From Raphidiopsis brookii D9 (GTDB lineage Bacteria; Cyanobacteriota; Cyanobacteriia; Cyanobacteriales; Nostocaceae), in the NCBI GenBank assembly GCA_000175855.1, contig ACYB01000001.1, positions 1 to 32,000 of the forward strand: a stretch of DNA of 32,000 nt. The letters are read 5' to 3'. Position 1 is the stretch's first letter. Each line of letters opens with the position of its first letter. Below are positions 837 to 9,545 of this stretch, in pieces. The position numbers were made by a program, and so were the translations under genes. A model generated the notes under the pieces. The model was not told the DNA's origin. It worked only from the letters and a program-made list of their open reading frames with translations, and did not search any database.

Positions 837-2177
837 CTATTTTTTCCACTGAGATGCTTTTTCTAAATCTGCCATTTTTAAATCGCTACCCTCATAAACT
901 AGTCCTTTAAATCGACAGTAGTTATATGCTACACCATCATCTAAATCTAGTTTAATTCGAGCATCGGCTAAATGTTGCAGTTTTTCTTGATATTCTGCTA
1001 GTTCTGACTGTTGGTCTTGTAATTCTTTGAGACGCTTACTAGCAATTTTTTTATCTGCATTGTTGGTGCTGATTTCCAGTTGTTTTTGATATTTAGTGAT
1101 TTCTCCTTCTAGTTTGATTTGCAGTTCTAACACATAGTCTGTGCGCATACGAGCCAGGGCATCTTCCTGGTAACGGTGTAAATAGATTAAGGCATTAAAG
1201 GCTCGTTTTTTTCCGCTAGTGAATAACCAGTATATGGGACGTTTTTTATAGGTTTGGATATGGTCGGAGATAAATTCTTGCAGAAAGTAGCGTTGGATCC
1301 TTTCTCGCGGACTTTCCCCATTTTTGAGGGTGAGGGTGTCAGCAATAAATTTCAGGTTTTCGCTGCAAGTATCTGCACTGTAGGCAATTTGGATAAATTC
1401 TTCAAAACGGGTAATGATGTCATCGGTAAAATAGGTTTGATCTGTGATGGGAATTATGGCATGATTGCTAGCTGGGAACTGTTGGTGGAGAGATGGGTCA
1501 AAGGGGTTTCCAGCATGAATGATGCCAGGTTTGTCAAGACTATACCTGCCCATGATACAACCTACTATGTAGGACAGGAGGGAACGGATATCTCGTTGTT
1601 GATCTGCACGGTTGATTGTAATTTGGTCTTCTGGGACTTCTGGAGTTAATTCTGTTTCTAGTCCGTAGGTTTGGATCCAGTAGCGGTTATTTTCTTCTTC
1701 TAGGAGTTGCAGTTGTCGGAATGCGGTTTCTGATTGGTTTTGCCATTGGGTGAAGCATTGGGAGATGGAGGGGGAATTGTGGCGCAATAATGGATGGGTT
1801 AGGAAGTCCCAGGAGGTTTCAAGGTTATCCCAATCTTGACGAGAAATGTTAATTGCCTGATCTATATTTTCAGTGATCTTAATTTGGGCTGTGTCGATAG
1901 TATTATTAAGTATTGGAAAATTTGATATTTGTCCAACTTCAAAATTTAATGTTGGAGAAAGTGAGCCTGTTGTACCATTCATAACAGGTGAATTCATCAC
2001 TCCTAAAATTGCTTTAATTATAGTTTTATCATTTGAAAATATTGACATACCTGCATCCGCAAAAATAAACCCTTGGGGATAAAATCTCAACGAAAAATAA
2101 CTACTTGTTACCTTGGACCAACTTACACTTTCTTTAAAATATTTATCTGTATTTTGGGGACGTGATCTAGGTTTCAT
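837..2177 (-). pseudogene. pglX: pglX fragment: C-terminal portion (446-aa ORF; the frame stays open upstream to about 2310)
   Basis: Reading the same frame upstream of 2177 gives '[40 protein letters not shown]' before the first Met. The C-terminal 'LDLDDGVAYNYCRFKG' matches the typical PglX tail. Confidence 0.85.
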
Positions 2178-2277
2178 TCCATATTCAATGCCAAAATTAC
2201 GAATCTCAAAACCATCATTTTCCCAATTAACAACATATTGTTGATTCCCATACCATTTTCTAAATTCTCCGCCTTTA

Positions 2278-8400: not shown

Positions 8401-8968
8401 AAGCCTCTTTGAAGGACTGATACTTACCCTGACTTTCTAATTGACGTTCAAACCGGGCAATTTCCGGTGTTGTGCCAAAATATCCCAAATGGTCGTCAAA
8501 GACTTTTTGGAATACCTTGGTAATGGTTTCTTTGTCATTTTTATTATTGGCATCGGCCTTAGAATCAATATTAAAGAGAATTACATCACAATGAGTTTGT
8601 GCTGCTAAGGCAATATTTGCCAATAGGGATGGGTCGGGAATTCTTTGGGAATCAAAGTAATCTAAAGCCCGATTATTTCCCACTGAACGATTTTCTAGTA
8701 GATAGGAAAGTATTTTGAGGAAATGAGATTTGCCAGAACCAAAGAATCCCGAAATCCACACGCCCATCTGGTCGGTTGGACTTTCAATTGATTCGGCAAA
8801 TCTGCCAAAAAAAGTATAAAAATGCTTCTTGAGTTCTTCGGTAACTACATACTCTTCTAACTCTTGACGAATATTAGTATCATCCTGCTGTCCCACCTTG
8901 ATGACACCATTAATACTGCGGTTAATATCCTTGGCAAACAGTTCAGTAATGTTCATAGACAGCTCCAT
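5426..8968 (-). CDS. brxC: BREX system P-loop ATPase BrxC/PglY
   Basis: 1180 aa. N-terminus 'NITELFAKDINRSINGVIKVGQ' and Walker A 'GFFGSGKSHFLK', with a long helical C-terminal region. It lies between brxB and pglX. An alternative start at ATG 8956 (MNITELF) is plausible. It overlaps the brxB 3' end by 14-26 nt. Confidence 0.9.
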   Translation of the reverse strand: MELSMNITELFAKDINRSINGVIKVGQQDDTNIRQELEEYVVTEELKKHFYTFFGRFAESIESPTDQMGVWISGFFGSGKSHFLKILSYLLENRSVGNNRALDYFDSQRIPDPSLLANIALAAQTHCDVILFNIDSKADANNKNDKETITKVFQKVFDDHLGYFGTTPEIARFERQLESQGKYQSFKEAFYSQTKQSWEETREAWAFYQDDIVAALTVSTGMSEEQANRLLEFNEKYTLSPEEFAKTVKEYLHTKGPKHRLVFMVDEVGQYIGEDTKLMLNLQTVVEDLGIHSQGRAWVVVTSQEAMDEITKNKIKGEDFSKIIGRFHRPLNLSSANTDEVIKLRLLSKTEEAKKRLEDLYTEKIAILTNQITFKDSADMPGYKNAQDFVAAYPFIPYQFYLLQKVFTQIRLMGSAGKHLASGERSLLDAFQVASQAISAQSLGRLVPFHTFYLAIEGFLDSVISQVITQATNNPQLEEFDIQLLKTLFMIKYIKEIRTNIENLTTLSLTNIDQDRLGLKKQVAEALGRLEKQTLIQRNTDEYIFLTNEEQDIGKEIKNTRVNPTEIYKKLQEWVWESILTDREFKFGKRKYSFNRKLDERDYGKKLQELTVHIITPYGENYAEFENNEKCIITTQSSLELLIRIGNNNHFLQDLETFSQTDQYLRQKTSSNLSPSIQKIIAGRKEENTQREENIKDTLKKLIASADVFSYGNKVEITRTEFATELLKQSLTYLIKNAYSKLQYIHSGFENPEQVKNALTRHIQERTIDGDADKVVNISAHKEMESFLHSQNKYHPTTIKSLMDKFTRTPYGWSELDTLGIMAELANAGVVELRHAQGKVNIEEGLIDKLLSREGKETYIVKLASTIDPASLKVARDLASKLLDKNILDIPTESGKLFQTYKEFLWDHVERLKEWLKLTQEQQLPFGNLLGHHIAMLEELRTDNSHEPEFLQLVRSRRDDLEEYIDELQKLKSFFNSQLKIFQGAQQSLKELKSELRHIEEEELLERVKSVEEILKMDDPTSVIHQLPKLLEPVQQKIQELLRQKIGELQQEMENQEKEMRDYIQKQYPAIANEISEIPQEIKNFHPSEIKTIDSAIAHRSELSDKTNQLWKKIDGKAQKVQEELGKSYHAAKPITFIQVGRFNPTKVLENEEDVEVYLGALREEFLKQIQRGCRIRLER

Positions 8969-9545
8969 GATGAGGTATTAAAGCGAAAGCTCGATAGTAG
9001 TTATCACTTTTAAAGGTATTAAATAAACAGAGTTCATGTCCATCATAGGATCCGGGGAAGAACAGCACTAAGGGAATGTGGTCAAGATAAGGTTGGAGAC
9101 CATTCAAAATACTGTGGGATCTAATTAGGGGCCAACTCGCTCCAACTCCAGTCAGGAATACCAATTGTTCGTTCCCTTGGAGGTGGTTTTGGATCTGAGC
9201 AATCACCTTTTCGGGTCGAACTATGGATTGGATTTTATTCCCGAGAGATTTGCACCCTTCTTTCGCTTCTACCATAAAAGCTTTATTGAGAATTCCTTTT
9301 TCTTGTAATAGTTCTAGGATTATCTTATACAGATTGAATTCTTTAACGATTAAATTTATTGGATCCTTAGTTAGTTGGGAAACAAGTACTTTAGTATATT
9401 CTTGAACATATAGTTCGTCTTCTGGAGCATAATCAAAAACATAGAAACCAATCTCATTGCCAATACCACGATTTTCCAACAGTCGGGAGTCTTGTAGTTT
9501 AGGTAGTAGTTGATTTAATCGTTCCTGAATACTCAATTTAGACAT
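8943..9545 (-). CDS. brxB: BREX protein BrxB (DUF1788 family)
   Basis: 200 aa, immediately upstream of and overlapping brxC. The features 'IGFYVFDYAPEDE' and the C-terminal 'LVLFFPGSYDGHELCLFNTFKSDNYYRAFAL' match my recollection of DUF1788. Confidence 0.8.
   Translation of the reverse strand: MSKLSIQERLNQLLPKLQDSRLLENRGIGNEIGFYVFDYAPEDELYVQEYTKVLVSQLTKDPINLIVKEFNLYKIILELLQEKGILNKAFMVEAKEGCKSLGNKIQSIVRPEKVIAQIQNHLQGNEQLVFLTGVGASWPLIRSHSILNGLQPYLDHIPLVLFFPGSYDGHELCLFNTFKSDNYYRAFALIPHHGAVYEHY

Follow-up and report, generated by a model that had tools for sequence, protein, structure and literature searches.

The stretch of DNA analysed here (the window) is 32 kb from the cyanobacterium Raphidiopsis brookii D9, and near its start, at positions 837-9545, it carries genes of a type-1 bacteriophage exclusion (BREX) system, all of them on the minus strand. 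Five open reading frames (ORFs) of 200, 1180, 260, 726 and 446 amino acids (aa) lie in this interval and represent brxB, brxC, an RNase T2-family gene and two pieces of pglX (Table 1). An initial annotation, made from the letters alone, had read them as a type-1 BREX cassette in the order brxB-brxC-(RNase T2)-pglX, incomplete and decaying, without brxA and with a repeat element in the place of pglZ. The cassette and its type were borne out by Pfam, PADLOC and NCBIfam profile matches; the PADLOC and Pfam searches that it had proposed as a check supported the BrxB, BrxC and PglX assignments, and the two motifs it quoted are present, the Walker A sequence GSGKSHFLK at residue 77 of BrxC and NPPY at residue 500 of the 726-aa ORF.

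Table 1. Features of the BREX locus in the window and, where so labelled, in Cylindrospermopsis raciborskii CENA302 (L056)
Feature	Coordinates	Strand	Details
brxB (DUF1788)	8943-9545	-	200 aa, intact; Pfam PF08747 6.9e-42; PADLOC BrxB 8.5e-69
brxC/pglY, P-loop ATPase	5426-8968	-	1180 aa, intact; relatives start at 8959 (1177 aa)
RNase T2-family gene, RNase I-like	4586-5344	-	252 aa from probable start; full ORF 4586-5368, 260 aa
pglX (BREX-1 N6-adenine methyltransferase)	837-4490	-	three frame segments: 4490-4392, 4395-2293, 2309-840
pglX piece 1 ORF	2278-4458	-	726 aa; PADLOC PglX profile 34-705 of 1174
pglX piece 2 ORF	837-2177	-	446 aa; PADLOC PglX profile 744-1168 of 1174
pglX frameshift site 1	4392-4396	-	A5 tract; A6 in both close relatives
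pglX frameshift site 2	2304-2310	-	A7 tract; A6 in both close relatives; just upstream of WFPYNKGG
pglX variable module A	2538-3014	-	~aa 520-660; D9 matches CENA302 and the KL1 metagenome-assembled genome; 20-30% protein identity to CENA303 and L057
pglX variable module B	1880-2238	-	~aa 750-890; D9 matches CENA303; CENA302 and L057 differ
Tandem ~436-bp unit, two copies	1-392, 431-827		89-96% identical; ends 10 bp before pglX stop (837-839)
G/C-rich hairpin palindromes in 436-bp units	86-112, 311-337, 523-549, 747-772		from repeat search
Region upstream of brxB	9546-10186		no brxA; HIP1 site at 9585
50-aa ORF	9793-9945	-	only ORF found in 9546-10186; called as a gene in relatives; no family match
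22-nt direct repeat	9647-9668, 9761-9782		91% identical, 114 bp apart; no RNA match
Schlafen/AlbA_2 + HATPase_c_4 protein gene	10987-12213	+	408 aa, divergent from brxB; PF04326 2.4e-25, PF13749 3.4e-11
Two tandem DUF29 paralogues	12253-12702, 12775-13242
L056 pglX	16179-19802	as BREX	RNase T2 gene precedes
L056 436- and 238-bp tandem repeats	14381-16169
L056 CRISPR array	~11038-13988	as BREX	40 perfect 36-nt repeats GTCCGCTTTCATCTAGGAAGTGGAATTAATGGAAAC
L056 truncated abiEii + abiEi		other strand	between CRISPR array and pglZ
L056 pglZ	6963-9581		872 aa, intact
L056 brxL	4921-6939		672 aa, intact; type III RAMP genes beyond
pglX ghost	L056 9601-9795; L054 9609-9803		just upstream of pglZ; stop-codon equivalent 29 nt before pglZ start

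BrxB scored 142.8 bits against PF08747 (cut-off 26.8), as a BREX-1 BrxB does, and its sequence is identical to EFA74475.1 of R. brookii D9 and to the corresponding protein of C. raciborskii CENA303. BrxC reached 1187 bits against NCBIfam NF033441 (cut-off 400) and 1303 bits against the PADLOC BrxC profile, which places it in the BREX-1 family, and it matches three BrxC domain models; its gene carries a D9-specific in-frame 3-bp deletion at ~6443. The HIP1 octamer GCGATCGC occurs at 2483 and 4111 within pglX and at 5676 within brxC, and nine sites are found in the window against 0.03 expected by chance. This density, together with the conservation of the locus across the genus Cylindrospermopsis/Raphidiopsis (hereafter the genus), fits the proposal of the initial annotation that the cassette has long resided in a cyanobacterial genome.

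For comparison we used conspecific contigs reached via BrxB, the RNase T2 protein and AbiEi, chiefly those of C. raciborskii CENA303 (L052), 99.5% identical to the window, and CENA302 (L053/L056, the latter oriented as the window), 98.9% identical. A wider set, drawn from representative genomes, comprised 51 related BREX loci, the best of which match the window at 71-75% identity (Nostoc, Brunnivagina). Within the D9 assembly, a 2010 draft, the 446-aa pglX ORF corresponds exactly to EFA74471.1 (CRD_00001) and the 726-aa one to EFA74472.1 (CRD_00002), both on a contig of 37,575 bp, and BrxB and the RNase T2 protein of the window are likewise D9 proteins. Since the pglX pieces are CRD_00001 and CRD_00002, no gene precedes pglX on its contig, and the window therefore opens at or near a contig end, inside repeats.

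As sequenced, pglX is not intact. When the PglX proteins of relatives were placed on the window by tblastn, residues 1-33 fell in frame -1, residues 33-727 in frame -3 and residues 722-1211 again in frame -1, so that the gene is split by exactly two frameshifts, as the initial annotation had stated. Both are 1-bp changes in A tracts. At site 1 the relatives L052 and L053 read ACGGAAAAAACC and the window ACGGAAAAA-CC; at site 2 the relatives read GCTGCTAAAAAA-TCTGG and the window GCTGCTAAAAAAATCTGG, its letters here having also been read directly. Translation from the pglX ATG at 4490 consequently ends after 45 aa. With both changes undone, a 1217-aa ORF without a stop is obtained, which contains NPPY and scores 1362 bits against NF033452 (cut-off 500), as expected of a BREX-1 PglX. 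All other strains have A6 at both sites, and in close strains pglX is a single intact ORF of 1205-1211 aa (1211 aa in CENA303, 1207 aa in CENA302).

A repeat search confirmed that a duplicated repeat lies within 10 bp of the pglX stop. The initial annotation had called it MITE-like (miniature inverted-repeat transposable element) and had it standing where pglZ should follow. The first label holds in part: two 27-nt arms, at 86-112 and 311-337, show 96% complementarity, in keeping with terminal inverted repeats, but the dispersed copies of a MITE were not seen, as in the 32-kb window the core motif is confined to positions 1-830 and the copies in relatives form local tandem arrays beside a CRISPR (clustered regularly interspaced short palindromic repeats) array. 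In L053/L056 the corresponding region leads into five further 238-bp units and then into the 40 CRISPR repeats. Beyond these come a truncated abiEii (97 aa, covering profile positions 1-32 of 238), abiEi and finally pglZ and brxL.

The view that pglZ had been lost and the system left incomplete was thus not upheld. Intact pglZ (872 aa) and brxL (672 aa) lie beyond abiEi in four Cylindrospermopsis assemblies; in two of these (CENA302 and MBQY01, i.e., L057) the other side carries an intact pglX together with the RNase T2 gene. The conspecific PglZ scores 680 bits against TIGR02687 (type A; cut-off 270) and the conspecific BrxL 1082 bits against TIGR02653. The D9 PglZ itself is EFA73044.1, located on a separate 16.5-kb contig, where 729 of 730 residues are identical to residues 143-872 of the CENA302 protein; thus a BREX-1 PglZ is present outside the window, intact in the conspecific loci and as residues 143-872 on another contig in D9. 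Cluster look-ups of BrxL turned up no D9 BrxL sequence. The initial annotation had suggested inspecting the sequence to the left of coordinate 1, where an intact pglZ and brxL immediately adjacent would have spoken against its reading; seen through the conspecific contigs, both genes are indeed there and intact, but pglZ starts ~6.6 kb from the pglX stop.

How this distance arose is indicated by a pglX remnant, or ghost, of ~200 bp that abuts pglZ and consists of the equivalents of window positions 2319-2231 fused to 940-828 (95% and 92% identity, 6-bp overlap). Since the ghost lies directly beside pglZ, it marks the ancestral pglX-pglZ junction, and the intervening block is therefore an insertion. 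The repeat next to pglX would then be the near edge of this insertion, at which the draft contig breaks, rather than a replacement of pglZ; pglZ seems replaced because the repeats form the end of the window and probably also of the D9 contig. Among the related BREX loci, pglX and pglZ can lie as much as 7.7 kb apart: in Anabaenopsis elenkinii (L020, 11402-18533) this interval holds genes for a 1244-aa MkoA-like helicase, a DarT-domain protein and an ADP-ribosylglycohydrolase, and a Nostoc example holds a DUF559 gene.

Several further observations concern this region. The structure of the ghost would fit the uptake into the chromosome of a circular DNA that bore a 3' piece of pglX, abiE and the CRISPR array, with a later internal deletion. 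In L056 the pglZ-brxL pair is situated between cas genes (type III repeat-associated mysterious protein, RAMP) and the CRISPR array. Directly 5' of the brxL start (L056 6939), a G/C homopolymer measures 7, 8 or 9 among strains, Illumina-era assemblies included, and could tune brxL translation. In two assemblies, L058 (NPIK01) and L059 (NPIL01), pglZ and brxL are fragmented, as is brxC in L059; most of pglX is missing from L059, and L058 has other genes in place of the half from brxB to pglX. For pglZ and brxL, the genes checked, we considered and rejected species-wide decay as the source of these fragments: each break checked comes from a homopolymer lengthened by +1 or +2, at two sites in both assemblies alike, and assembly error is therefore likely.

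The absence of brxA was the other ground on which the cassette had been called incomplete. The gene is indeed missing, both upstream of brxB and from all loci of the genus examined, but to take this as a sign of decay was a misreading, as the absence is typical of the lineage. Neither tblastn nor a BrxA hidden Markov model run on six-frame translations (nothing at E <3) revealed a BrxA (DUF1819) in the 32-kb window or in L052-L061, and in the loci of the genus none was found from upstream of brxB to 5 kb past brxL. A degenerate brxA was also sought upstream of brxB and downstream of brxL, and nothing was found. Among 121 matches to a cyanobacterial BrxA profile, none carries a Cylindrospermopsis or Raphidiopsis name; for BrxB, many strains of the genus are represented. 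As brxA is missing also from loci in which all other genes are intact, its absence is genus-wide and coexists with otherwise intact systems.

The absence upstream of brxB also accords with the position of brxA in other cyanobacteria: in at least 15 other cyanobacterial loci brxA is convergent and lies directly after brxL, never upstream of brxB. This arrangement, with brxA on the opposite strand at about 17-18.8 kb in each locus (e.g., L002-L040), was seen in Nostoc, Rivularia, Kamptonema, Phormidesmis, Pseudanabaena and others, and in non-cyanobacterial relatives (Deinococcus, Trueperaceae, Syntrophomonas and others) brxA precedes brxB. A 264-aa ORF before pglZ in Nostoc L002, considered as a candidate BrxA, found no support. 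Of note, BrxA is dispensable in the E. coli HS system and not in that of Acinetobacter (PMC9240713).

We next turn to the strain-to-strain variation within PglX. A three-way DNA alignment and a five-protein alignment delimited two variable modules, A and B, outside which the PglX proteins are 99-100% identical among strains; inside a swapped module, identity falls to 20-50%. Four combinations were seen: A1-B1 in D9, A2-B1 in CENA303, A1-B2 in CENA302, and A2 with a third version of B in L057. Module A covers the equivalent of the DNA-contacting loop of Salmonella PglX (591-600), and module B overlaps its target-recognition domain (residues 684-838), so that strains would exchange the specificity-determining middle of the protein. 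Since the modules coincide with the specificity regions of the Salmonella enzyme, their exchange would imply strain-specific methylation motifs.

The gene between brxC and pglX encodes a member of the RNase T2 family (PF00445, 6.3e-19, 69.3 bits, cut-off 26). Its translation contains the catalytic motifs FTLHGLWPD and EWIKHGTC, each with its His, at least eight Cys residues and a hydrophobic N-terminus that ends in AIA before DN; the enzyme is apparently exported, with what looks like a signal peptide. Its best match among solved structures is the periplasmic E. coli RNase I (2ea1, 1.8e-25), and its score against the RNase I equivalog NF007502 is 105 bits, below the cut-off of 436. The gene is kept at the brxC-pglX position across the genus, was found in none of the 51 related BREX loci and has no PADLOC match; nor is RNase T2 mentioned in the main text of one BREX survey. 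The closest orthologues (66-68% identical) belong to Sphaerospermopsis, Anabaena azotica and Trichormus, where they stand in a housekeeping context rather than one of BREX or other defence: a conserved 141-aa gene, the RNase T2 gene, then a permease or Uma2/RecJ. The gene is most likely a passenger, a putatively exported, RNase I-like housekeeping enzyme lodged at the brxC-pglX junction. This junction is a variable slot: many Nostoc loci have a reverse-oriented mazEF there, and different small modules occupy it in other loci. The 141-aa gene, of no known family, always precedes the orthologue in the three Nostocales genera (L064 5427-5852, L065 5428-5853, L067 5383-5808) and is missing beside the Cylindrospermopsis copy; its product could be a partner or an inhibitor of the RNase.

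Given these findings, the case for decay comes down to the two pglX frameshifts. They exist in the sequence, but decay is doubtful, as no lesion was seen other than two A-tract changes of 1 bp each, in a draft produced by 454 GS20. On that platform the D9 genome was covered 27x, and no more than a few hundred Sanger reads were added (PMC2821919). Across the 19 kb compared, D9 has five 1-bp indels of its own, each in a homopolymer. Three of them are intergenic; these point to the platform, because selection would not purge such events from other strains. In a 10.9-kb three-way alignment, lineage-specific substitutions numbered 10 in D9, 26 in CENA303 and 49 in CENA302, and 1-bp indels four, zero and zero; the chance that all four indels fall on the D9 branch is C(14,4)/C(89,4) = 4e-4. 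We therefore consider the frameshifts most likely to be homopolymer miscalls, with a confidence only somewhat above even, and since they most likely are, pglX is probably intact in the D9 organism.

Taking all of this into account, we hold it somewhat more probable than its alternatives combined that the window contains the 5' part of an ordinary type-1 BREX in the layout of its genus, with frameshifts that are likely 454 miscalls and an RNase T2 passenger. Most of the apparent incompleteness and decay would come from the 5-6 kb insertion and from a draft unreliable at A runs. In this layout brxB-brxC-[RNase T2]-pglX is followed by an inserted block and by pglZ-brxL, with no brxA; the block comprises the 436- and 238-bp tandem repeats, the 36-nt-repeat CRISPR array, the truncated abiEii with abiEi and the ~200-bp older pglX 3' remnant. 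By analogy with studied BREX-1 systems, PglX together with BrxB, BrxC and PglZ would methylate a 6-bp non-palindromic motif on host DNA, and unmethylated phage DNA would be kept from replicating, BrxL helping.

A number of points weigh against this interpretation. None of the five D9 homopolymer indels lies in the other 12.8 kb of coding sequence, which has 70 of the 125 runs of at least five bases, a placement with a probability of (55/125)^4, ~0.04, under uniformly random errors. This is the pattern that selection would leave if the changes were real, unless only recognised genes had been corrected. Moreover, D9 pglZ is annotated from an internal Met143, which suggests a third BREX lesion, and pglX is reported to be phase-variable, commonly so, unlike other BREX genes (PMC11341690). 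As regards the rest of the locus, the physical link between the pglX and pglZ contigs of D9 would follow from that seen in relatives; brxA elsewhere in these genomes was excluded by a word-indexed profile search only; and the RNase gene is conserved and co-oriented, with gaps of only 81 and 95 bp and no predicted terminator, all of it compatible with co-expression with BREX (a promoter and terminator scan of 700-10300 gave fewer matches than shuffled sequence and was uninformative). The indel placement can be reconciled with miscalls if, as we infer, finishing corrected frameshifts only in recognised genes, the pglX pieces and pglZ having been annotated as hypothetical.

The strongest alternative is that the frameshifts are real, pglX and probably pglZ having been inactivated very recently by A-tract slippage, so that BREX would be dead in D9 only while the sister strains remain intact. 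This we regard as possible, though clearly the less probable account. It would explain why both coding indels fall in pglX while the remaining genes of the window look full length, why the annotated D9 PglZ lacks its first 142 residues and why translation from the pglX ATG stops so early, and it would suit a lineage with a reduced genome (PMC2821919). It has to accommodate, however, four 1-bp homopolymer indels per 10 substitutions in D9 against none per 75 on the two longer branches, three indels of five in intergenic positions beyond the reach of selection in other strains, and a platform prone to exactly this kind of error with little Sanger correction. No further damage has accumulated in D9 either: D9-specific non-synonymous changes number one in pglX and none in brxB, brxC or the RNase T2 gene.

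A combined reading, in which a five-gene BREX-1 works without brxA, the RNase takes part in defence and pglX truly switches ON and OFF through the A-tract changes seen in D9, which would then not be sequencing errors, appears very unlikely. Phase variation by itself, with the A tracts as contingency loci whose reversible slippage switches pglX and the D9 culture sampled OFF, we judge highly improbable. In the Streptomyces Pgl system, a G tract in pglX is used for phase variation. That precedent, the reported commonness of such variation in pglX among BREX genes, the nature of both lesions as tract-length changes and the strain-variable tract 5' of brxL all favour switching. Against it, tracts of A5-A7 offer little length for slippage to be efficient, two separate changes have to be assumed where one would suffice, and every other strain has A6 at both sites, in a comparison based on one consensus sequence per strain. 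Least credible of all is that the RNase was recruited as an auxiliary BREX component, such as a back-up effector that degrades RNA and perhaps makes up for the lack of BrxA, with brxB-brxC-RNase T2-pglX as one unit: its fixation in the slot on the same strand with short gaps, the endoribonuclease toxins (mazEF, a PIN-like pair) in the same slot of other cyanobacterial BREX loci and the RNase-type auxiliary effectors catalogued around BREX loci are outweighed by its export signal, Cys-rich and RNase I-like features, by the non-defence synteny of orthologues in three other genera and by its absence from the related loci, lack of a PADLOC match and lack of an adjacent antitoxin or immunity gene.

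Outside the cassette, the region upstream of brxB was confirmed to hold no ORF of 60 aa or more (9546-10186), as first described. Some cyanobacterial BREX-1 loci have a MerR-family gene upstream of brxB. The divergent gene further on encodes a protein with the Schlafen/AlbA_2 and HATPase_c_4 architecture, which is reported for a class of RNases often associated with BREX loci, across more than 1000 taxa (PMC12839542), and just downstream of the DUF29 paralogues lies a D9-specific 12-bp tandem duplication, TATTTTATGGTT, at ~13252. Rfam returned no RNA family match in the window, nor downstream of pglX in L053. A search of the literature library available returned no paper naming both BREX and Cylindrospermopsis, or linking BREX to Cylindrospermopsis/Raphidiopsis.

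The ordinary type-1 BREX that we favour carries several implications. It cautions that a draft defence locus can look decayed through contig breaks in repeats and homopolymer miscounts. It further indicates that a bloom-forming, toxin-producing cyanobacterial genus keeps a BREX-1 without brxA, and that in cyanobacteria generally brxA sits at the far operon end on the opposite strand. BREX operon junctions act as insertion slots, receiving mazEF, DarT-like genes, abiE, a CRISPR array and, here, an RNase. Lastly, the PglX module swaps predict that methylation motifs and phage host ranges differ from strain to strain, a point that bears on the use of phages against blooms.

In comparison with known systems, the locus shares with the phase-variable pglX of Streptomyces coelicolor Pgl changes of homopolymer length within pglX, here alongside a swapping of PglX specificity; it differs in that the D9 tracts are short (A5-A7) and each strain is represented by a single consensus, and sequencing error is the simpler explanation. 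With E. coli RNase I (rna), the window RNase has in common its family, the catalytic His motifs, a signal-like N-terminus and the best structure match, and it departs from it in falling below the equivalog cut-off, as a family-level relative, and in sitting inside BREX. Foreign genes at inter-gene junctions are also known from other BREX loci, including BrxU (GmrSD-family) of pEFER, mazEF of Nostoc and auxiliary nucleases and RNases (PMC9240713; PMC12839542), and the brxC-pglX and pglX-pglZ junctions are variable slots across the 51 related loci; the occupant here differs in being an exported-looking RNase I-like enzyme rather than a recognised defence or toxin-antitoxin module. Compared with the type-1 BREX of Bacillus cereus, E. 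coli HS, Salmonella and Acinetobacter, the genus, whose system is known here from sequence alone, differs by having no detected brxA, a ~6.6-kb pglX-pglZ split and an embedded RNase T2 gene. It has the same families, with their relative order and common strand preserved, the Prokaryotic Genome Annotation Pipeline (PGAP) names the relatives' proteins "BREX-1 system ...", and BrxB, BrxC, PglX and the conspecific PglZ and BrxL all pass curated NCBIfam or Pfam cut-offs, so that by five of the six core families the system is assignable to BREX type 1, with a layout that appears mildly unusual.

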